Below are positions 1-10,960 of a stretch of 64,000 bases of DNA, piece by piece (the first letter of the stretch is position 1; every line of letters begins with the position of its first letter). The translations under genes were made by a program, and so were the position numbers. The notes beneath the pieces were generated by a model. The model searched no databases. It was not told the DNA's origin and was given only the letters and a program-made list of their open reading frames with translations. Origin of the DNA: Escherichia coli (GTDB lineage Bacteria; Pseudomonadota; Gammaproteobacteria; Enterobacterales; Enterobacteriaceae); the NCBI RefSeq assembly GCF_050920415.1, contig NZ_CP169309.1, one strand, 5' to 3'.

Positions 1-93
1 GGGGCTACCGTGTGTGAATTTTTCCGTGCGCCACCGCCACAAAATGGTCGCTCTTTTCTTTCCTCCCTCCGGTTTGCAGGAGACACCCTATGA
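1..93 (+). CDS. 3' end of upstream gene (partial; probably yhfW-like), stop overlapping php start (ATGA)
   Basis: Frame open from window edge to TGA 91-93, overlapping php ATG 90-92; no start codon in window. Confidence 0.3.
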
Positions 94-968
94 GTTTTGA
101 TCCGACGGGCTTCACCCTCGCCCATGAGCATCTGCATATTGATCTCTCCGGCTTTAAAAACAACGTGGACTGCCGCCTTGATCAGTATGCGTTCATTTGC
201 CAGGAGATGAACGACCTGATGGCACTGGGGGTGCGTAATGTGATTGAGATGACCAACCGTTACATGGGGCGCAATGCACAATTTATGCTCGATGTAATGC
301 ACGAGACGGGGATCAACGTGGTGGCCTGCACCGGTTATTACCAGGACGCGTTTTTCCCGCAACATGTGGCGACCCGCAGTGTGCAGGAACTGGCGCAGGA
401 GATGGTCGATGAAATTGAACAGGGTATCGATGGCACGGAGCTGAAAGCCGGGATCATCGCGGAGATCGGCTCCAGCGAAGGAAAGATTACGCCGCTGGAA
501 GAGAAAGTTTTTATTGCCGCCGCGCTGGCACATAACCAGACCGGACGCTCGATCTCCACGCATACGTCGTTCAGCACGATGGGGCTGGAGCAATTGGCTC
601 TGTTGCAAGCCCACGGAGTTGATCTTTCGCGCGTCACCGTTGGTCACTGCGATCTGAAAGACAACCTCGACAACATTTTGAAGATGATCGATCTCGGCGC
701 CTATGTACAGTTCGACACCATTGGCAAGAACAGTTACTACCCGGACGAAAAGCGCATTGTGATGCTTCATGCGCTACGCGACCGTGGGTTGCTGAACCGC
801 GTCATGCTGTCGATGGATATTACGCGCCGCTCTCATTTAAAAGCCAACGGTGGTTATGGCTATGACTATTTATTAACCACCTTTATTCCGCAATTGCGCC
901 AGTCAGGATTCAGTCAGGCCGATGTGGATGTGATGTTACGTGAAAATCCCTCTCAATTTTTCCAATAA
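90..968 (+). CDS. php: phosphotriesterase-homology protein
   Basis: 292-aa ORF with N-terminal HxH metal-binding motif (LAHEHLHID); matches Php/YhfV. Confidence 0.9.
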
Positions 969-978
969 GGACAGACTC

Positions 979-1332
979 ATGAAAAAGATTGGTGTTGCAG
1001 GCTTACAGCGTGAGCAGATTAAAAAAACCATTGAAGCGACGGCTCCTGGCTGTTTTGAAGTTTTCATTCATAACGACATGGAAGCGGCGATGAAGGTGAA
1101 ATCCGGGCAACTGGATTACTACATCGGCGCGTGTAATACCGGTGCGGGCGCGGCATTGTCGATTGCCATCGCGGTGATTGGCTATAACAAAAGTTGCACC
1201 ATTGCCAAGCCGGGCATTAAAGCGAAAGACGAGCATATCGCCAAAATGATCGCCGAAGGGAAAGTGGCGTTTGGGCTTTCCGTTGAGCACGTCGAACATG
1301 CGATTCCGATGCTGATTAACCATCTGAAATAA
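979..1332 (+). CDS. yhfU: DUF2620 family protein YhfU
   Basis: 117-aa product from ATG 979 with RBS aagga upstream; track ORF 940 is an over-extended start. Confidence 0.8.
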   Translation: MKKIGVAGLQREQIKKTIEATAPGCFEVFIHNDMEAAMKVKSGQLDYYIGACNTGAGAALSIAIAVIGYNKSCTIAKPGIKAKDEHIAKMIAEGKVAFGLSVEHVEHAIPMLINHLK

Positions 1333-1343
1333 AAGGCACGACT

Positions 1344-2648
1344 ATGGATCTGTATATTCAGATTATCGTGGTGGCGTGCCTGACGGGTATGACATCGCTT
1401 CTGGCGCATCGCTCGGCAGCCGTTTTTCATGACGGTATCCGCCCGATCCTGCCGCAACTGATTGAAGGCTATATGAACCGTCGTGAGGCGGGGAGTATCG
1501 CTTTTGGTCTGAGCATTGGTTTTGTGGCCTCGGTGGGGATCTCTTTTACCCTGAAAACCGGGTTGCTCAACGCATGGTTACTCTTTCTTCCTACCGATAT
1601 CCTCGGCGTACTGGCGATAAACAGCCTGATGGCGTTTGGCCTTGGTGCACTCTGGGGCGTACTGATCCTCACCTGCCTGCTGCCGGTAAACCAGCTGCTG
1701 ACCGCGCTACCGGTGGATGTATTAGGTAGTCTGGGGGAATTAAGCTCGCCAGTGGTTTCAGCTTTTGCACTGTTCCCGTTGGTGGCGATTTTCTACCAGT
1801 TTGGCTGGAAGCAAAGTCTGATCGCCGCCGTGGTAGTGTTGATGACCCGTGTGGTGGTAGTGCGCTATTTCCCGCATCTCAATCCGGAATCCATCGAAAT
1901 CTTTATTGGCATGGTGATGCTGCTGGGGATCGCGATAACTCACGACCTGCGTCATCGTGATGAAAATGATATTGATGCCAGCGGGCTTTCGGTGTTTGAA
2001 GAACGCACGTCGCGGATTATCAAAAACTTACCGTATATCGCCATCGTAGGGGCGCTGATTGCCGCAGTTGCCAGCATGAAGATTTTTGCTGGTAGTGAAG
2101 TGTCGATCTTCACCCTGGAGAAAGCATATTCCGCAGGCGTTACACCGGAGCAATCGCAAACGCTGATCAACCAGGCGGCGCTGGCGGAATTTATGCGCGG
2201 GCTGGGCTTTGTGCCGTTGATTGCCACCACCGCGTTAGCAACAGGTGTGTATGCCGTTGCGGGCTTTACCTTTGTTTATGCGGTGGGCTATCTCTCTCCG
2301 AATCCGATGGTTGCGGCGGTATTAGGCGCAGTGGTTATTTCGGCAGAAGTCCTGTTACTTCGTTCGATCGGCAAATGGCTGGGACGCTACCCATCGGTAC
2401 GTAATGCGTCGGATAACATCCGTAACGCCATGAATATGCTGATGGAAGTGGCTCTGCTGGTCGGTTCTATTTTCGCAGCAATTAAGATGGCGGGCTATAC
2501 CGGATTCTCCATCGCGGTTGCCATTTACTTCCTCAACGAATCCCTGGGCCGTCCGGTACAGAAAATGGCGGCACCGGTCGTAGCCGTAATGATCACCGGC
2601 ATCCTGCTGAATGTTCTTTACTGGCTTGGTCTGTTCGTTCCGGCTTAA
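1344..2648 (+). CDS. yhfT: inner-membrane transporter YhfT
   Basis: 434-aa highly hydrophobic multi-TM ORF, operon position after yhfU. Confidence 0.85.
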   Translation: MDLYIQIIVVACLTGMTSLLAHRSAAVFHDGIRPILPQLIEGYMNRREAGSIAFGLSIGFVASVGISFTLKTGLLNAWLLFLPTDILGVLAINSLMAFGLGALWGVLILTCLLPVNQLLTALPVDVLGSLGELSSPVVSAFALFPLVAIFYQFGWKQSLIAAVVVLMTRVVVVRYFPHLNPESIEIFIGMVMLLGIAITHDLRHRDENDIDASGLSVFEERTSRIIKNLPYIAIVGALIAAVASMKIFAGSEVSIFTLEKAYSAGVTPEQSQTLINQAALAEFMRGLGFVPLIATTALATGVYAVAGFTFVYAVGYLSPNPMVAAVLGAVVISAEVLLLRSIGKWLGRYPSVRNASDNIRNAMNMLMEVALLVGSIFAAIKMAGYTGFSIAVAIYFLNESLGRPVQKMAAPVVAVMITGILLNVLYWLGLFVPA

Positions 2649-2659
2649 GGAAGGTACCT

Positions 2660-3745
2660 ATGAAGACGTTTCCTTTGCAAAGCCTGACGCTTATTGAAGC
2701 GCAGCAAAAGCAGTTTGCGTTGGTGGATACGATTTGCCGTCATTTTCCCGGCAGCGAGTTTCTTACACGCGGGGATTTAGGCTTAACGCCAGGGCTGAAT
2801 CAACCGCGTATTACTCAGCGTGTGGAGCAGGTGCTGGCTGATGCGTTTCATGCGCCAGCGGCGGCGCTGGTACAGGGCGCAGGTACTGGAGCGATTCGTG
2901 CGGCGCTGGCAGCTTTGCTCAAACCGGGGCAGCGTCTTCTGGTGCATGACGCGCCGGTTTACCCGACGACTCAGGTCATTATTGCGCAGATGGGGCTGAC
3001 GCTTATCACTGCTGATTTTAATGACCTGTCGGCACTGAAGCAGGTCGTCGACGAGCAACAACCAGATGCCGCGCTGGTGCAGCATACGCGCCAACAGCCG
3101 CAGGACAGCTATGTGCTGGCAGATGTGCTGGCAACATTGCGTTCGGCTGGCGTTCCTGCGTTAACCGATGACAATTATGCGGTGATGAAGGTGGCTCGAA
3201 TTGGCTGCGAATGCGGCGCGAATGTTTCGACATTCTCCTGTTTCAAGCTGTTTGGACCAGAGGGTGTTGGCGCAGTGGTAGGTGATGCCGATGTTATTAA
3301 CCGGATCCGCGCCACGCTCTATTCCGGCGGCAGTCAGATCCAGGGCGCACAGGCGCTGGAAGTATTGCGTGGTCTGGTGTTTGCGCCAGTCATGCACGCG
3401 GTGCAGGCGGGGGTATCTGAACGGTTGCTGGATTTACTTAACGGTGGCGCGGTGGCGGAAGTTAAAAGCGCCGTTATTGCCAATGCGCAGTCGAAGGTGT
3501 TGATTGTGGAGTTTCATCAACCGATTGCCGCCAGAGTGCTTGAAGAGGCGCAAAAGCGCGGCGCGTTGCCTTACCCGGTCGGCGCAGAGTCAAAATATGA
3601 AATCCCGCCGCTCTTTTATCGACTTTCCGGAACGTTTCGTCAGGCGAATCCGCAATTAGAACATTGTGCAATTCGCATTAACCCGAATCGCAGCGGTGAT
3701 GAGACGGTATTGCGGATTTTGCGCGAGAGTATTGCCAGCGTTTAA
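2660..3745 (+). CDS. yhfS: putative PLP-dependent aminotransferase-like protein YhfS
   Basis: 361-aa ORF, last gene of php-yhfUTS cluster. Confidence 0.85.
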   Translation: MKTFPLQSLTLIEAQQKQFALVDTICRHFPGSEFLTRGDLGLTPGLNQPRITQRVEQVLADAFHAPAAALVQGAGTGAIRAALAALLKPGQRLLVHDAPVYPTTQVIIAQMGLTLITADFNDLSALKQVVDEQQPDAALVQHTRQQPQDSYVLADVLATLRSAGVPALTDDNYAVMKVARIGCECGANVSTFSCFKLFGPEGVGAVVGDADVINRIRATLYSGGSQIQGAQALEVLRGLVFAPVMHAVQAGVSERLLDLLNGGAVAEVKSAVIANAQSKVLIVEFHQPIAARVLEEAQKRGALPYPVGAESKYEIPPLFYRLSGTFRQANPQLEHCAIRINPNRSGDETVLRILRESIASV

Positions 3746-3783
3746 TTCTGGGAACGATGTTTTCGCAGAGGATGGAGAAAAAT

Positions 3784-3809
3784 ACGCCCTCGGAAAATTC
3801 AGAGGGCGT
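3784..3809. terminator. hairpin between convergent yhfS and yhfL (T-run on minus strand: yhfL terminator)
   Basis: acgccctc-N10-gagggcgt inverted repeat; on minus strand followed by ATTTTTCT. Confidence 0.5.
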
Positions 3810-3849
3810 TAGCTCATTAAATCGGTGTTAGCCGATTTCTGTCAGAGAC

Positions 3850-4017
3850 TTACTGTGCAGTAGGACCGCAACCGCCAATGATTTTAGAAATAGAAATTGC
3901 CGGGTGCAGCAGGTAGTCGTAAGAGCAGTTCTTATCACGGTTTTCAATATGACCAGTACATGCAGTTAACGTAGCCAGTACTGCACCTACCAGTGCAACT
4001 TTAATAAATTTGTTCAT
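3850..4017 (-). CDS. yhfL: small lipoprotein YhfL (55 aa)
   Basis: Hand-translated: MNKFIKVALVGAVLATLTACTGHIENRDKNCSYDYLLHPAISISKIIGGCGPTAQ; lipobox LTAC; below track size cutoff. Confidence 0.85.
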   Translation of the reverse strand: MNKFIKVALVGAVLATLTACTGHIENRDKNCSYDYLLHPAISISKIIGGCGPTAQ

Positions 4018-4214
4018 TTACATTCCCTATGTATTATATATTAATTAATATTCATTGATTATATGAATATAAGCGGACTGCTCATAAAGAACGATACAGG
4101 AATATTTAATTGGCGTCAGTGAGTGAATGACTTAATTTTGTAAGTCGCTGTAACGGTGAATATAATCCATTAGCAAATGATATTTATTAAGAGGGTATGC
4201 TTTATTTGCTGAAT

Positions 4215-4256
4215 ATATAAAAAGAGTGATAAAGAGGGCCAGAATTATCTGGCCCG
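4215..4256 (-). terminator. cysG rho-independent terminator
   Basis: gggccag-aattat-ctggccc hairpin followed on minus strand by T-rich tract. Confidence 0.5.
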
Positions 4257-4263
4257 GGTAAAA

Positions 4264-5637
4264 TTAATGGTTAGAGAACCAGTTCAATTTATCGCGCAGG
4301 CCAACGACCCGACCAATAATAATTAATGAGGGACTGTTCATTTGCTGCGCCAGCTCGCCCAGTTGCGTGAGCGTACCGTCAATCACGCGTTGCGTTACCG
4401 CCGTACCGTTTTCGACAATCGCCACCGGCATTTCGCAAGGCATTCCGTGTTCAATCAGTTTTTGCTGAATGGTCGCGGCCTGATTAAGCCCCATATAGAA
4501 CACCAGCGTCTGTTTTTCGGCTGCCAGGTTTTCCCAGTCCAGCTCGCCACCGGTTTTTAAGTGTCCGGTAATTAAGCGTACGCTCTGAGCATAATCGCGA
4601 TGCGTGAGCGGAATGCCCGAATAGGCAGAGCAACCAGACGCTGCGGTAATACCTGGAACCACCGAGAACGGAATGCCTGCATTGCACAGTGTTTCCAGCT
4701 CTTCGCCACCACGGCCAAAAATAAACGGATCGCCGCCTTTCAGCCGCACCACGCGTTTGCCTTTTTGCGCTTCCCGCAGCAGGATCTGGTTAATCTCTTC
4801 CTGCGGTACGCAGTGGTATCCCGCGCGTTTGCCGACGAAAACGCGATCAGCATCGCGGCGTACCAGATTCATAATATCGTCAGAAACCAGACGGTCGTAG
4901 ACCACCACATCTGCCTGCTGAATTTGTTGCAGTCCTTTTAGTGTCAGCAGACCGGCATCGCCCGGACCTGCGCCAACCAGCACCACTTCACCGCGATGAT
5001 CGAGCGGTTCATTGATTAACTGTTCGGTCGTTTCGGTAATGGCTTTCTGATCGTTGTTCGCCAGCGACTGCGCCAGGCGATCATTAACGAACAGTTTTTC
5101 CCAGAAACGGCGACGTTCACCCATCGTGGCGAACTGTCGTTTGACCCGACCGCGTAACTGCCCCGCATATTTTGCTACCTGGCCGAGATGCAGCGGCAGC
5201 AGTGATTCAAGTTTTTCGCGCAACAGTCGCGCCAGAACCGGAGAGGTGCCGCCAGAGGAGACCGCTACCATGAGCGGGGAGCGGTCAATAATCGACGGCA
5301 TAATAAAGCTGGCGGCTTTCGGCGCATCGACCACGTTACAGAAGATACGACGAGATTCGGCGGCTTCGCTGACACGCTGGTTAAGCGCGTCATCATCCGT
5401 CGCCGCAATTGCCAGCCAGCAGGTGTCGAGAAGGCTTTCATCAAATGGCCCTTCGACGAGGGTTAACATGCCTGCATCTGCCCATGCGGTGAACTGTGGA
5501 ATAAACGCTAATGCATTCACCGTTAAGCGAGCACCTGCGTCTAACAGCAACCTTGCTTTGCGTTCCGCGACATCACCACCGCCGACAATCAAACAGTCGC
5601 GGTCGCGTAATTGGCAAAATATAGGCAAATGATCCAC
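4264..5637 (-). CDS. cysG: siroheme synthase (uroporphyrinogen-III methyltransferase / precorrin-2 dehydrogenase / ferrochelatase)
   Basis: 457-aa ORF; N-terminal GGGDVA Rossmann motif, C-terminal methyltransferase domain. Confidence 0.95.
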
Positions 5638-5655
5638 GTAAAAACCCCTTAATAA

Positions 5656-6462
5656 TTAACCGGCAGCCGTTTCAGTTTGATTAAATTTGTCCGCAACCGG
5701 ACGATTAGCTTTCGGCGTAGCATACCAATAACCCAATCCCATGAATACGGCACCCGATAAAGTATTACCCAGCGTCACCCACAGCAGGTTATGACCAATA
5801 CCCGCCAGCGTGTAGGCTTCGCTGTGGTTGCCGAACCATGAGAGCGCGAACAGCGTCATGTTAGCGATGGAGTGCTCGTAACCGGACGCAATAAACGCCA
5901 GCAGACACCACCAGATTGCGATAAATTTCGCCGCGCCTTCAGTACGCAGTGCCATCCAGATTGCCAGACAAACCAGCCAGTTACACAATGCGCCTTTGAA
6001 GAACAGTACCATTGCCGGTGCGGTGGTTTTAGCCAGCGCGACGGAGTGAACAATACTGGTATCTACTGGCAAAAGGCTACCACCGCCCCAGCTATAAAGC
6101 ATGGCAACAAAGACGGAACCGACCAGGTTACCCAGCCAGGTTTGCGGCAGGATTGCCCACATTTGCCCGTGGCTAATGGTGCCCGCTTTCACCCCAAAGG
6201 TGAGGAACATGGTGTGTCCGGTGAACAGTTCAGAACCGGCGATAATGACCAGCGTTAAGGCGATACCAAAGGTCGCGCCCATCACCAGAGGACGTACGGA
6301 CGGATCGAGCAAATTACCGAGCGTGAAAATCAGGATGATCCCCAGCCCCACATACGCGCCCGCCATCGCGGAGCTTACCCAGAAGCCGAGCGGGTTATTT
6401 GCCGACAGGCGTGCAATGCGCGCAGCGTTAGCCGCACACTTATTAATAGTGTCTGTAAACAT
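5656..6462 (-). CDS. nirC: nitrite transporter (FNT family)
   Basis: 268-aa membrane ORF downstream of nirBD. Confidence 0.95.
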   Translation of the reverse strand: MFTDTINKCAANAARIARLSANNPLGFWVSSAMAGAYVGLGIILIFTLGNLLDPSVRPLVMGATFGIALTLVIIAGSELFTGHTMFLTFGVKAGTISHGQMWAILPQTWLGNLVGSVFVAMLYSWGGGSLLPVDTSIVHSVALAKTTAPAMVLFFKGALCNWLVCLAIWMALRTEGAAKFIAIWWCLLAFIASGYEHSIANMTLFALSWFGNHSEAYTLAGIGHNLLWVTLGNTLSGAVFMGLGYWYATPKANRPVADKFNQTETAAG

Positions 6463-6556
6463 TTGATTATCCTTTAAAAAATAAAAACAAAAAATAAAAC
6501 AAAAAGTTTAAAAAATGTCCTGCAATATACTTAAGGTCATTACAGGACAATGCAAA

Positions 6557-6580
6557 AAGGGGAGGCATTGCGCCTCCCGT
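6557..6580 (-). other. nirD-nirC intercistronic hairpin
   Basis: gggaggc-attgc-gcctccc inverted repeat. Confidence 0.4.
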
Positions 6581-6588
6581 TAAAACAA

Positions 6589-6915
6589 TTAACCGCGTAG
6601 CTGTACCACGCCGTCTTTCACTCGTGCCTCGTAATGCTTGACGGAAAACTGTTCATCTTCCATGCATAAACCGTCGCTTAAGCGAAAACGCTGTTTTTTC
6701 AGCGGACTGGCGACCCACAGCTCGCCCTGGTGTTCCGCAATCAGCCCGCGTGACAGCACGCTGGATTCGAAGAACGGATCGATGTTGCTGATCGCAAACA
6801 CCTGGTCGCTGTGATACGGGCGGAAAATCGCTACCTGCTCGTCACCTAACAGCGCGCAGACGCCGGTTTCAGGCAGGATGTCATCAATTTTGCAGATGTC
6901 TTTCCACTGGCTCAT
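6589..6915 (-). CDS. nirD: nitrite reductase small subunit
   Basis: 108-aa ORF overlapping nirB stop. Confidence 0.95.
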   Translation of the reverse strand: MSQWKDICKIDDILPETGVCALLGDEQVAIFRPYHSDQVFAISNIDPFFESSVLSRGLIAEHQGELWVASPLKKQRFRLSDGLCMEDEQFSVKHYEARVKDGVVQLRG

Positions 6916-9455
6916 GCGTTGTCCTCCACCAGAGTTACCGGGATACGTTCATACGGCGTTGCCGGACGGTGCTGTTCGCGCTCTGGCACCATCTGCACGT
7001 TCGGGTCACGCTTGTCGCTGTTGATGAAGTGTTTGAAGCGAATCTGCGCGGACGGTGTATTGACCGTTTCAGTCCACTCACACACTACCGCTTCACGCAG
7101 GCGCGCCATCTCTTCTTCCAGATGTGCGTTCAGCCCCAGCTTGTCGTCAATGATCACCGCTTTCAGGTAATCGATGCCGCCTTCGAGGTTTTCTAACCAC
7201 GGTGCGGTACGCGTCAGTTTGTCGGCAGTACGGATGTAGAACATCATGAAGCGGTCAAGATATTTGATCAGCGTTTCGCGATCGATATCCGCTGCCAGCA
7301 GATCCGCATGACGCGGTTTCATGCCGCCGTTACCGCACACATACAGGTTCCAGCCTTTTTCGGTGGCGATAATACCTACGTCTTTACCCTGAGCTTCTGA
7401 ACATTCACGGGTACAGCCGGAGACACCGAACTTCATTTTGTGCGGCGTACGGATGCCTTTGTAGCGGTTTTCCAGTTCCACGCCGAGGCCGACGCTGTCG
7501 CCAACGCCATAGCGGCACCAGGTGCTACCCACGCAGGTTTTCGCCATACGCAGTGCTTTCGCATAGGCATGACCGGTTTCGAAACCTGCTTCAATCAGCT
7601 GACGCCAGATCTCCGGCAGATCGTCTTTCTGTGCGCCAAACATCGCCAGACGCTGGGAGCCGGTGATTTTGGTGTAGAGATTAAATTCACGCGCGATACG
7701 ACCCACTGCCATCAGCCCTTCTGGGGTGATTTCACCACCCGGAGAACGCGGGATCACCGAGTAGGTGCCGTCTTTCTGGATGTTAGCGAGGAAGTTGTCG
7801 TTAGAATCCTGCAGCGGAGTATGTTCCGGCTTCAGAATGTATTCGTTCCAGCAGGAGGCCAGCAGCGAACCGACGGTCGGTTTACAAACCTCACAACCGT
7901 AGCCTTTACCGTGTTTCGCCAGCAGTTCTTCGAAGGTTTTAATGCCTTCAACGCGGATCAAATGGAACAGTTCCTGACGCGAATAAGCAAAGTGTTCGCA
8001 CAGGTTATTGTTAACTTCGATACCCTGTTTTGCCAGTTCCGCGTTCAGTACCTGAGTGACCAGCGGGATACAGCCACCGCAGCCAGTACCCGCTTTGGTT
8101 TCGGCTTTCAGCGCCGCAACGGTGTGGCAGCCTTTGTTGATGGCAGCAATCAGATCGCCTTTGGTGACGTCGAAGCAGGAGCAGATTTGCGCGCTGTCCG
8201 GCAGTTTATCAACACCAATAGACGGCTTGCCGCTACCTGAGTGCGCCGGCAGGATCAGGGAATCCGGGTTTTCCGGCAGTTCGATTGCGTTCAGCACCAG
8301 TTGCAGCAGGTTACCGTAGTCGCTGGTATCACCCACCAGTACTGCACCGAGCAGGGTTTTGTTGTCTTCGCTGACAATCAGGCGTTTGTAGATCTCTTTA
8401 CTTTCGTCGAGGTAAACGTAGCTACGTGCGCCAGGCGTGCGACCGTGAGCATCGCCAATACCGCCTACGTCTACGCCAAGCAGTTTCAGCTTGGCGCTAA
8501 GGTCAGCACCTTCAAAGGCGTTTTCGCTACCGAGAATATGGTCAACGGCGACCTGCGCCATTTTGTAGCCAGGTGCTACCAGACCAAATACACGGTTGTT
8601 CCAGCTTGCGCATTCACCGATGGCGTAGATATCTGGATCGGAAGTCTGGCAGGAATCATTAATGACGATACCCCCACGAGGAGCAACGTCCAGACCACAC
8701 TGGGTTGCCAGCTTATCGCGCGGACGGATACCGGTAGAGAAGACGATAAAGTCGACTTCCAGTTCGCTGCCGTCGGCAAAACGCATGGTTTTACGCGCTT
8801 CGACACCTTCCTGCACAATCTCAAGAGTGTTTTTGCTGGTGTGAACGCGTACACCCATGCTTTCGATTTTGCGACGCAATTGCTCGCCGCCCATCTGATC
8901 AAGCTGTTCCGCCATCAGCATAGGGGCAAATTCGATAACGTGGGTTTCAATGCCTAAGTTTTTCAGCGCGCCAGCGGCTTCCAGACCTAACAGGCCGCCG
9001 CCAACAACGGCACCGCGCTTACTGCGACGGGCGCAGGATTCAATGGCGTTGAGGTCTTCAATGGTGCGATAGACAAAGCAGTCCTGAGTATCAGAACCTT
9101 TGATTGGCGGGATCCACGGATAGGAACCGGTCGCCATGATCAGCTTGTCATAAAAAACGGTACGTCCGGCGCTGGAGTGAATCACCTTCTCCTGACGGTT
9201 GATGGTGATAGCGCGTTCGCCGACCAGAACTTTAATACCGTGTTTTTCGTAAAAGCCTTCGCGCACCAGCGACAGCTCTTCGGCGGTGTGGTGAGAGAAG
9301 TAAGACGAGAGGTGTACGCGGTCATAAGCGATGCGCGGTTCTTCACAGAAAACGGTAATATCAAAGTTGGCCGCATCAGATTTATCAAGAAGATCTTCGA
9401 TAAAGCGATGGCCGACCATACCGTTACCGATAATTGCGAGTCTGACTTTGCTCAT
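6912..9455 (-). CDS. nirB: NADH-dependent nitrite reductase large subunit
   Basis: 847-aa ORF; N-terminal FAD/NAD Rossmann (IIGNGMVG), Cys clusters for siroheme/Fe-S. Confidence 0.97.
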   Translation of the reverse strand: MSKVRLAIIGNGMVGHRFIEDLLDKSDAANFDITVFCEEPRIAYDRVHLSSYFSHHTAEELSLVREGFYEKHGIKVLVGERAITINRQEKVIHSSAGRTVFYDKLIMATGSYPWIPPIKGSDTQDCFVYRTIEDLNAIESCARRSKRGAVVGGGLLGLEAAGALKNLGIETHVIEFAPMLMAEQLDQMGGEQLRRKIESMGVRVHTSKNTLEIVQEGVEARKTMRFADGSELEVDFIVFSTGIRPRDKLATQCGLDVAPRGGIVINDSCQTSDPDIYAIGECASWNNRVFGLVAPGYKMAQVAVDHILGSENAFEGADLSAKLKLLGVDVGGIGDAHGRTPGARSYVYLDESKEIYKRLIVSEDNKTLLGAVLVGDTSDYGNLLQLVLNAIELPENPDSLILPAHSGSGKPSIGVDKLPDSAQICSCFDVTKGDLIAAINKGCHTVAALKAETKAGTGCGGCIPLVTQVLNAELAKQGIEVNNNLCEHFAYSRQELFHLIRVEGIKTFEELLAKHGKGYGCEVCKPTVGSLLASCWNEYILKPEHTPLQDSNDNFLANIQKDGTYSVIPRSPGGEITPEGLMAVGRIAREFNLYTKITGSQRLAMFGAQKDDLPEIWRQLIEAGFETGHAYAKALRMAKTCVGSTWCRYGVGDSVGLGVELENRYKGIRTPHKMKFGVSGCTRECSEAQGKDVGIIATEKGWNLYVCGNGGMKPRHADLLAADIDRETLIKYLDRFMMFYIRTADKLTRTAPWLENLEGGIDYLKAVIIDDKLGLNAHLEEEMARLREAVVCEWTETVNTPSAQIRFKHFINSDKRDPNVQMVPEREQHRPATPYERIPVTLVEDNA

Positions 9456-9513
9456 TTTTGCCTCGATTTCTTTTCTATTACCGCCTACCTTAACGATTCA
9501 GCAACCCCGCTTA

Positions 9514-9527
9514 TTGATGTAAATCAA
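9514..9527 (-). promoter_or_regulatory. FNR binding site of nirB promoter (TTGAT-N4-ATCAA)
   Basis: ttgatgtaaatcaa about 60 bp upstream of nirB ATG. Confidence 0.65.
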
Positions 9528-9540
9528 ATTCACCTTTATA

Positions 9541-9556
9541 TACTCCTTAAGAGGTA
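9541..9556 (-). promoter_or_regulatory. NarL/NarP 7-2-7 heptamer pair of nirB promoter
   Basis: tactcct-ta-agaggta inverted heptamers (TACYYMT type). Confidence 0.5.
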
Positions 9557-9716
9557 TATTGCTGATTTGTATAAATTTTCTTAAGTCACGGAATTGTCTG
9601 ACATTTCATTCGTGTGCAAAAAATAGACAAAATGAAAGGGTTTATAGAAATAGACGTACGTAGCGGGGTAAGTGAGGAAAAGGCCGGACGACGATAGCGC
9701 CGCCCGGCATGAGCAA

Positions 9717-10898
9717 TTAATGAGAGGTCAGGGTGTTATGCTGACGGTGACGGCTGACGAAACCTAACAGGAAGCACATCACAAAGACGACAGCGTACAG
9801 ACCGTTTGCCGTCAGCAGCGCCGCCTTTGGACCGCTATGTTCAACAATCGGGCCGGTAACGACAAAGGTCAGCATGGTACCGATGGTCCCGCAGGTCAGG
9901 ACAAAGTTAACCAGTTTTGGTGACGGTACTTTGGTTTGCTGTGAACCCAGGGTGATGATGGTGGTATAGATCGCGCTGGAGAAGAAGCCCAGGGCGAGAA
10001 TTGACCACGCCATATGTGCCGGTGTTCCGGTGTTAAAGACGTACATTAGAATCGCAGCCAGACCGGCCAGTACGGTCAGAATACGTTGCAAATCAAAGAA
10101 GCGAAGAATAAAGCTGAACGCCCACATGCCGACCATATAGGACATCCAGAAGTTACTCACCAGCGTACCTGCGTCGTTCAGGCTCATGCCCAGGCCTTTG
10201 GCATACTCTGGTACCCAGGAGATAAAACCTAACTGACCGAGGATGTAGCACAGCGCCGCAACAGAGAGAAACAGCACGCCGATCCCCCATTTTTCTTTCG
10301 CTACCGGAGCATCCGTTTTTGGTGCATGTTTGCCCAGTGCCGGAAACTCACAGCCGAAGGTCAGAATAAAAATAGCGACGTAAACCAGCCCGATGCAGGC
10401 ATAAACCCAGTACCACTCAATGCTGCGCGCCAGCAGAAACGCGGCGATCATTGGGAAAATCATCCCTGCCATACTGAAGAAGGAGTCGGTAAATAACAGG
10501 CGAGAACCGCGCTGACGCCCTTCATACATTTGTGTTATCAGGAATGTACCAATCGACATAGTGATACCGCTGACCACCCCGAGAATGAACATCGCTGCCG
10601 AGAAAAGCGCCAGGCTGTGGCTAAACATCAAACCAGCAACCGCTAGCACCATCAGGAGAAAGCCAAAACGTAACTGCGTTTTTAACGGGACGATTTCCAT
10701 CAGCCAGGCATTGAGGAAGATAGAGATTAAAATGCCAGCATTGAGGAAGGTGAAGGTGTTACTCATACTGGAAACAGGCAGATTGAAATAATCGGCGATA
10801 TTTCCCATCACCATCCCGGTGACAATAACCAACGCACCCGTCAGTGCGTAGGAGAGAAAGCTAATCCATGTGAGCTTGATGCGATTGCTGTTAGTCAT
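9717..10898 (-). CDS. tsgA: MFS transporter TsgA
   Basis: 393-aa 12-TM-like ORF between nirB and ppiA. Confidence 0.9.
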
Positions 10899-10960
10899 GA
10901 TTGGCCTGCGTTCAAAAATAAAATGGCATAGCGGGATATGCCGCGAGCGGGCGATTTTAG

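Follow-up and report, generated by a model that had tools for sequence, protein, structure and literature searches.

The stretch of DNA analysed here (the window, 64,000 nucleotides of an Escherichia coli chromosome, contig NZ_CP169309.1) opens with the genes php, yhfU, yhfT and yhfS, and holds the promoter-distal half of the eight-gene cluster yhfZ-yhfY-yhfX-yhfW-php-yhfU-yhfT-yhfS (the yhf cluster). We read this cluster as a cassette, fed by the phosphoenolpyruvate phosphotransferase system (PTS), for the uptake and catabolism of a nitrogen-containing sugar-like compound that bears an alpha-amino-acid centre as well as a ring or ester open to hydrolysis; we regard the chances of this reading being right as evenly balanced. 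Such a compound could be, for instance, a glycated amino acid or the lactone or lactam of an amino-sugar acid. The biochemical roles and the substrate class are what we infer from gene content, conservation, folds, catalytic residues and genomic associations. The original prediction had spoken of uptake plus catabolism and of no established substrate. The former is kept as the best general reading of the cluster, its roles being presumed ones, and with regard to the latter, a full-text literature search returned no published substrate or pathway for the php/yhf genes or the operon.

Bases 1-9000 of the window are 100% identical to E. coli MFDS1022581, in which the open reading frames (ORFs) are annotated as php, yhfU, yhfT and yhfS (Table 1), and the four genes have the same lengths in K-12. 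The gene identities, shared strand and tight coupling claimed for these four genes agree with the ORF coordinates, the Pfam matches and the intergenic gaps, which are 10 nt for php/yhfU and 11 nt for both yhfU/yhfT and yhfT/yhfS. Also, the yhfW stop overlaps the php start in an ATGA read at 90-93, and each of the starts is preceded by an AGGA-type ribosome-binding site. The wording "intact operon" had to be given up, because the window opens inside yhfW, whose end lies at 1-93, and base 1 is preceded by yhfX and by yhfY and yhfZ, the regulator genes. The cluster starts with yhfZ about 3.75 kb upstream of the window, so that yhfZ, yhfY, yhfX and most of yhfW fall outside it; trpS is found beyond yhfZ, and the same eight genes are present in K-12. 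An operon table reproduced in PMC4448311 gives yhfX-yhfW-php-yhfU-yhfT-yhfS as one transcription unit. A promoter and terminator scan gave fewer promoter-like sites than shuffled controls and was not used for any inference. Some E. coli entries (P0002, P0081, P0146 and others) carry YhfU-YhfT fusions; as the window shows a clean stop and an 11-nt gap, these were treated as frameshift or annotation artefacts.

Predicted roles of the cluster proteins

Php matches PF02126 (PTE, phosphotriesterase) over residues 1-292 and is essentially identical to PDB entries 4LEF and 1BF6 (E ~1e-192). The metal ligands H12, H14, E125, H158, H186 and D243 are kept in at least 97% of 77 orthologues; here and below, residue conservation was taken over orthologues from 80 loci, with 39-81 sequences per protein. 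Glu125 reportedly stands at the place of the carboxylated lysine of PTE, as Buchbinder is said to have described in 1998. These matches make Php a PTE-family member of the amidohydrolase superfamily, with a predicted binuclear-metal hydrolase activity. Besides its own entries, the best solved relatives are PTE-like lactonases (E about 1e-38). It may be noted that the PTE-like and phospho-sugar lactonases of cog1735 (SsoPox, Lmo2620/3PNZ, NF045706) are of the same TIM-barrel two-metal family and have the same metal ligands, but Php falls far under both the phospho-furanose lactonase cut-off (95.2 bits against 630 for NF045706) and that of the organophosphate hydrolase (OPH) model (98 bits against 500). 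Kim et al. 2010 (PMC3010111) observed that php overexpression suppresses a pdxB deletion, and list Php as a predicted metallohydrolase of unknown function.

Two proteins of the cluster are predicted to be pyridoxal 5′-phosphate (PLP) enzymes. YhfS matches PDB entry 4J8L, 'uncharacterized protein YhfS', at E 3.6e-226; it scores 28.2 bits for PF01053 (threshold 27) and 37.8 bits for PF00155 (threshold 19.7), and a profile search matched cystathionine gamma-synthase and methionine gamma-lyase at E 1e-10 to 1e-7. Its D170 and its Schiff-base lysine K196, in an S-x-x-K motif, are invariant among orthologues. On these comparisons YhfS is placed among the fold-type I PLP enzymes, nearest to the Cys/Met-metabolism (gamma-lyase/synthase) group. 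In YhfX the barrel is of the alanine-racemase type, K61 is conserved at 97% or more, and there is a weak resemblance to ornithine racemase. YhfW, annotated as a phosphopentomutase, matches NF009049 (728 bits), Pfam Metalloenzyme and phosphopentomutase models, as well as solved phosphopentomutases at E 1e-30, and its metal and Thr84 sites are conserved to the same degree as K61 of YhfX. YhfW was also among the proteins captured on the cstA promoter by DNA affinity (PMC7730263), which is odd for a predicted phosphomutase. Other than this, mentions of yhfW, yhfZ, yhfX and yhfY in the literature searched are list entries only, and a match to 'b3379' turned out to be an unrelated strain name. The PDB entries for Php, YhfS, YhfX and the C-domain of YhfZ, the last being PDB 2OZZ, were deposited as 'uncharacterized', 'hypothetical' or 'homology protein'.

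YhfU had been labelled a small protein, which is correct as to its size and incomplete otherwise, for fold comparison assigns to it an RpiB/LacAB-type alpha/beta fold with an invariant Cys. Its C52-N-T54-G was aligned by hhalign to C66-G-T68-G of RpiB, the catalytic Cys/Thr of the beta3-alpha3 loop; C52 is kept in all 81 orthologues and T/S54 likewise in 81 of 81. Against PF02502 (RpiB/LacAB) YhfU scores 13.6 bits (E 0.065), under the gathering threshold of 24.7, and 18 of 27 homologues are sub-threshold matches. In RpiB, the Asp/His loop is the substrate loop and the C-terminal helix binds phosphate. YhfU differs on both counts: it has G8-L9-Q10-R11-E12 where the beta1-alpha1 loop of RpiB has C-D-H-V-G (Asp9/His10), and with 117 residues as opposed to 149 it is 32 shorter and without that helix. 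Unlike the RpiB/LacAB genes, the yhfU gene always adjoins a membrane-protein gene (80 close loci) and its product is sometimes fused to a PRD domain. Such DUF2620-PRD (YhfU-like/YhfY-like) single polypeptides were found at locus L098 (5258-6061) and in five related protein clusters (P0391-P0395, 267-299 residues, from high-GC metagenomic lineages). A 435-residue 'DUF2620 fusion' (P0397) was rejected as a mis-called start, its N-terminal 300 residues having no other Pfam domain and an internal Met preceding DUF2620. Two alternatives stand for YhfU. Its fold and Cys/Thr loop favour an isomerase, and a phospho-carrier or regulatory partner is favoured by its constant position next to yhfT, by fusion to PRD and by the linkage to HPr and Enzyme I.

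YhfT had been called a 434-residue multi-pass transporter, of which the length and the multi-pass membrane character are confirmed and the transporter role is a presumed one. It has 12 segments at Kyte-Doolittle ≥1.6 and a grand average of hydropathy of 0.93, and its AlphaFold2 model is confident and all-helical, which together describe an integral membrane protein of roughly 12 segments. No relative of YhfT was detectable among Pfam families or solved structures, EIIC and other known transporter families included, and membership of a known transporter or EIIC family was rejected at the level of these sequence and structure comparisons. The family is rare, with 305 clusters (50% identity) at E≤1e-3 among 1.84 billion representatives; one conserved peptide pattern gave, as a lower bound, at least 211 relatives among about 100,000 species genomes. 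Within the family profile, residues 6-123 can be weakly aligned to residues 228-350 (hhalign E 2e-4), and this likeness of its N- and C-terminal halves hints at an internal duplication. On three contigs, a PNP_UDP_1 nucleoside phosphorylase/nucleosidase gene is the partner of a distant homologue of 27% identity, and in L090 (9001-10978) and L091 none of the other yhf genes accompany the pair; the family may therefore serve more than one pathway.

Of the two regulator candidates, YhfZ consists of a helix-turn-helix plus a ligand-binding domain. E. coli YhfY gives sub-threshold matches to PF00874 (PRD; 17.8 bits against 23) and TIGR03582 (27 bits against 69), and its orthologues in L074, L086 and L093 exceed the PRD threshold; His48 of YhfY is kept in 70 of 70 orthologues.

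On comparison with K-12, the genes of the cluster give ratios of nonsynonymous to synonymous substitution (dN/dS) of 0-0.17 at dS 0.13-0.38. For the genes in the window, dN/dS is 0.087 in php, 0 in yhfU (100% amino-acid identity), 0.009 in yhfT and 0.051 in yhfS, as compared to 0.007 in trpS; yhfU and yhfT are constrained as strongly as trpS. This suggests that the yhf genes are under purifying selection and functional.

A self-contained cassette and its proposed supply by the phosphotransferase system

Each of the 80 loci that were fetched has yhfU directly upstream of yhfT. Seven of the genes (yhfZ, yhfY, php, yhfU, yhfT, yhfX and yhfW) recur as a set, with their order rearranged, in Enterobacterales (ZYXW-php-UT(S)), Vibrionaceae (ZY-php-UT-XW), Firmicutes (Z(Y)UT-php-(S)XW) and Sebaldella. 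The gene yhfS is optional, being absent from the Yersinia and Vibrionaceae clusters; several Yersinia are without yhfW and keep the rest, and Enterovibrio retains only U-T-X-W. The genes on either side are those expected from the synteny of each lineage (in Enterobacteriaceae cysG and trpS, in Yersinia a flavohaemoglobin-like gene), and the yhf loci had no further neighbour common across phyla that might reveal the substrate. Since the set recurs reordered across phyla without another conserved neighbour, its distribution marks it as a self-contained, horizontally spread cassette. The genome-context and co-occurrence analysis recommended earlier yielded the self-contained set and its adjacency to PTS genes, and no cross-phylum neighbour that names the substrate. 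Some lineages append genes of NagB type (L074, L076), SIS type (L094) or for a Cof-type HAD phosphatase (L086). In L095 (2517-7649) an NCS1 (cytosine/purine/hydantoin-type) permease is present, with hydantoinase A and B at the usual php position, and this replacement of php points to a ring-opening step.

In at least six lineages, non-proteobacterial ones, the cluster has genes for HPr and/or Enzyme I directly beside it; the associations described here come from about 20 non-proteobacterial loci. Enzyme I follows yhfW in L071 and HPr follows yhfW in L075 and L078; an HPr-Enzyme I fusion is found in L094, both HPr and Enzyme I in L095, L098 and one further JGI contig, and Enzyme I on the opposite strand in L097. 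No kinase is encoded in any yhf locus examined.

These associations, taken with the protein families, give the following putative pathway. YhfT would carry the compound across the membrane, and YhfU would isomerise a sugar-phosphate moiety or bear a phosphoryl group on Cys52. The two-metal centre of Php would open the ring or ester, and YhfW would move or transfer phosphate through its Thr84/Mn site. YhfX, together with YhfS where it is present, may then act at the amino-acid carbon by PLP chemistry (racemisation or elimination). The intermediates would be phosphorylated, with phosphate drawn from Enzyme I/HPr of the PTS and not from an ATP kinase, and YhfZ and the PRD protein YhfY (His48) may control expression by substrate and by the phosphorylation state of the PTS. 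The phospho-sugar flavour of this proposal comes from the phosphopentomutase match of YhfW, the RpiB fold and Cys of YhfU, the distant kinship of Php to phospho-furanose lactonases and to PTE-like lactonases, and the NagB/SIS/HAD additions. The amino-acid centre is proposed because there are two PLP enzymes, one with an alanine-racemase-type barrel (YhfX) and one of the Cys/Met gamma family (YhfS), and the supply by the PTS because the loci have no kinase, HPr and Enzyme I genes are adjacent, the His of YhfY is invariant and YhfU is found fused to PRD.

Several observations weigh against this reading. The clusters of E. coli, Vibrio and Yersinia have no HPr or Enzyme I gene of their own, an EIIA-like protein is absent from all yhf loci examined, and the cluster encodes no aldolase or dehydrogenase to finish a sugar-acid pathway. 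Also, some lineages can do without yhfS and yhfW, the distant YhfT homologues of L090-L093 have no YhfU with them, and a YhfU-PRD protein occurs away from YhfT (L098). Lastly, no experiment in the literature searched links any yhf protein to a substrate.

A bolder form of the proposal, which we consider doubtful, is that YhfY, YhfU and YhfT form a new kind of PTS permease. Phosphate would pass from HPr~P to His48 of YhfY (in the role of EIIA), from there to Cys52 of YhfU (in the role of EIIB), and then to the substrate as it crosses YhfT (in the role of EIIC, by a fold not represented in the PDB); the weakly related SFCGS/DUF4310-4312 clusters found in Enterococcus and Aeromonas would then stand as a sister family. 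In this respect it may be noted that YhfU does not have the fold of EIIB, and its Cys52 lies elsewhere than in the first (beta1-alpha1) loop, which is where EIIB has its phospho-Cys.

Two other pathways can be drawn from the same proteins. In the first, which we hold to be unlikely, the cassette is independent of the PTS and serves a cyclic or non-canonical amino acid (a homoserine-lactone- or hydantoin-type compound or a D-amino acid), such that YhfT is a secondary carrier, Php opens a lactone or lactam, YhfX racemises, YhfS eliminates a beta or gamma substituent, and the sugar-phosphate labels of YhfW and YhfU are misleading. The lactonase relatives of Php, the hydantoinases in place of php in L095, the likeness of YhfX to ornithine racemase and of YhfS to gamma-lyases all suit such a substrate, as does the fact that U-T-X is the most persistent trio (Enterovibrio loci, L088, L097). 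However, YhfW shows full conservation at its metal and Thr84 sites and a strong match to phosphopentomutase, and the adjacency of HPr/Enzyme I, the PRD protein and the NagB/SIS/HAD additions are left unexplained. The second, which appears improbable, is the salvage or catabolism of a ribosyl (nucleoside-like) compound with an amino-acid moiety. After import by YhfT, the ribose would come free as ribose-1-phosphate, which YhfW would turn into ribose-5-phosphate for isomerisation by YhfU, and YhfX and YhfS would act on the amino-acid part. In favour of this route are the annotation and modelling of YhfW as a phosphopentomutase, the ribose-5-phosphate isomerase B fold of YhfU together with its catalytic Cys/Thr, and the pairing of the distant YhfT homologue with a PNP_UDP_1 gene. 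Yet a nucleoside phosphorylase or nucleosidase is present in none of the 80 closer loci, YhfU lacks the Asp9/His10 loop and the phosphate-binding helix of RpiB, several Yersinia dispense with yhfW alone, and the route gives no role to the PTS association.

That the yhf genes are cryptic or decaying remnants without present function in E. coli is hardly credible on account of the purifying selection: though the literature searched gave neither a phenotype nor an inducing condition, and 351 of 5426 complete genomes (O157:H7 included) are without the cluster, the four ORFs are intact at K-12 lengths with dN/dS of 0-0.09 over dS 0.13-0.38, the catalytic residues are conserved across phyla, and the php-yhfS block is present at 80% coverage or more in 5062 of the 5426.

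The trpS-yhfL interval

In K-12, frlABCDR lies between yhfS and yhfL, and alignments to K-12 confirm the claim that it is missing there in the window. Homology to K-12 ends at ~3751, about 6 nt past the yhfS stop codon, and resumes some 25 nt on at ~3770-3776, just before a hairpin at 3784-3809, the predicted minus-strand terminator of yhfL. Another hairpin lies at ~3820-3837, with UUUCUGU after it on the plus strand, and on folding the spacer the hairpins gave z values of -3.2 and -3.6. Of the 5426 complete E. coli genomes, 2105 (39%) have the contiguous yhfS-yhfL junction, and yhfS-(yhfL)-cysG without frl is seen in E. albertii, Citrobacter, Klebsiella, Buttiauxella, Cedecea and others. Because the outgroup genera and these 2105 genomes have the contiguous junction, the frl-empty state is probably ancestral and frl looks like an insertion, so that the deletion of frl assumed in the original prediction has probably been given the reverse polarity. 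The K-12 frlR-yhfS spacer (L002 8785-8935) contains a palindromic repeat resembling the repetitive extragenic palindromic elements, of GCCGGATGCG...CATCCGGC type, and the window has none; its presence on the K-12 side only fits the arrival of frl as an insertion.

The description of the neighbourhood as variable was borne out by three states of the interval in E. coli, which are yhf plus frl (K-12), yhf only (the window and 39% of genomes) and frl only (O157:H7). In O157:H7 strain 86-24 (L085) the order is trpS-frlRDCBA-yhfL with the entire yhf cluster missing; frlD of this strain is annotated as a pseudogene with an internal stop. From these gene orders the trpS-yhfL interval is taken as the site of two independent optional cassettes, yhf and frl. 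The fructoselysine operon frlABCDR resembles yhf in being an optional catabolic cassette for a modified amino acid/sugar in this interval, but the two have no homologous genes in common and each is found without the other. A functional tie between them was considered and rejected on account of the outgroup genera that have yhf without frl and of O157:H7, which has frl without yhf.

Table 1. Features at the start of the window, with the positions of the yhf genes and of the frl-empty site
Feature	Position	Strand	Description	Basis
yhfW, 3′ end	1..93	+	Phosphopentomutase-like metalloenzyme gene; last 30 codons plus stop	Frame 1 ...FAGDTL*; TGA at 91-93
php	90..968	+	292 aa; predicted binuclear-metal hydrolase, amidohydrolase superfamily	Pfam PTE, 476.6 bits
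yhfU	979..1332	+	117 aa from ATG	Pfam DUF2620, 175.2 bits
yhfT	1344..2648	+	434 aa; presumed translocator	Pfam YhfT, 602.2 bits
yhfS	2660..3745	+	361 aa	Pfam YhfS-like_C plus weak PLP fold-type I families
yhfS-yhfL intergenic region	3746..3849	.	frl-empty site	K-12 alignments, folding, pattern position
yhfL	3850..4017	-	DUF4223 lipoprotein; convergent neighbour bounding the yhf cluster, outside it	

Nucleotide identity of yhfL to K-12 is 100% over 168 bp, and that of its flanks is 91.1% (yhfS) and 94.9% (cysG), i.e. 5-9% divergent; yhfL could be a small recombination patch or be under an unusual constraint. The window over 1-16650 (also L001) is an outlier among E. coli. Its php-yhfS block is ~94% identical to that of 5047 of the 5075 genomes having the block, its argD-yhfK is ~96% identical to all 5424 other genomes, and its trpS and cysG have a dS of ~0.2 against K-12. 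The YhfT of the GTDB 'Escherichia sp. E1V33' is identical to that of the window, which may derive from a cryptic Escherichia lineage labelled E. coli. Further along, at 4264-9455, the minus strand carries cysG, nirC, nirD and nirB in the order usual for E. coli, and nothing else stood out.

Related systems and significance

Among characterised systems, the closest in logic are the L-ascorbate PTS/lactonase operon and the D-glucosaminate pathway. Like yhf, the L-ascorbate operon (ulaABCDEF-ulaG with ulaR) combines a membrane translocator with a small cysteine protein and with a ring-opening, metal-dependent hydrolase, which in yhf is proposed to act on a phosphorylated lactone; sugar-phosphate isomerase/epimerase steps, a dedicated repressor and phosphate from Enzyme I/HPr instead of a kinase are further likenesses to yhf as proposed here. 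The parts themselves differ. YhfT is without detectable similarity to UlaA or another EIIC and yhf has no EIIA; YhfU is RpiB-like, with its Cys in another loop than that of EIIB; Php belongs to the PTE family and not to the metallo-beta-lactamase family; and two PLP enzymes and a phosphomutase are additional in yhf. The D-glucosaminate pathway of Salmonella (dgaABCDEF) is a PTS-linked catabolism of an amino-sugar acid with a PLP enzyme, as is proposed for yhf, but it has a canonical mannose-family PTS, and YhfS is of the Cys/Met gamma family and not of the SelA/DgaE type.

By weak homology, the closest relative is the uncharacterised PRD/SFCGS/DUF4310-4312/amidohydrolase/DgaE cluster of Enterococcus. 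With an SFCGS Cys protein, membrane proteins, an amidohydrolase, a DgaE-type PLP lyase and an aldolase (PMC11934601), it follows the same logic as yhf. This Enterococcus/Aeromonas cluster, EF_0829-EF_0839, encodes a PRD protein, an SFCGS protein, DUF4310/4311/4312, an amidohydrolase, a DgaE-type lyase and a KDGP aldolase. In common with yhf it has a PRD-only protein (YhfY matches TIGR03582 at E 4.6e-6), a Gly-rich Cys protein of roughly 115 residues (DUF2620 against PF14272, E 0.0034), multi-pass membrane proteins and an enzyme of the amidohydrolase superfamily. However, these sequence links are weak and under the family thresholds, the membrane parts are unrelated by Pfam, and yhf is without the aldolase.

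Annotation of the yhf genes in E. coli K-12 goes back decades, and four of their eight products have been crystallised, which means that the genes themselves are no discovery. The cluster is nevertheless among the larger enzyme-rich clusters of the best-studied bacterium that are still without a substrate, and the mechanism proposed for it would make it a PTS-linked catabolic operon of a non-canonical kind. If the PTS-like reading of YhfY, YhfU and YhfT is true, it would give a new permease architecture in a transport system thought to be fully catalogued, and roles for DUF2620 and the YhfT family; if it is wrong, yhf would be an ordinary orphan catabolic cassette. The comparative evidence turns what was a vague "unknown catabolic operon" into testable proposals.

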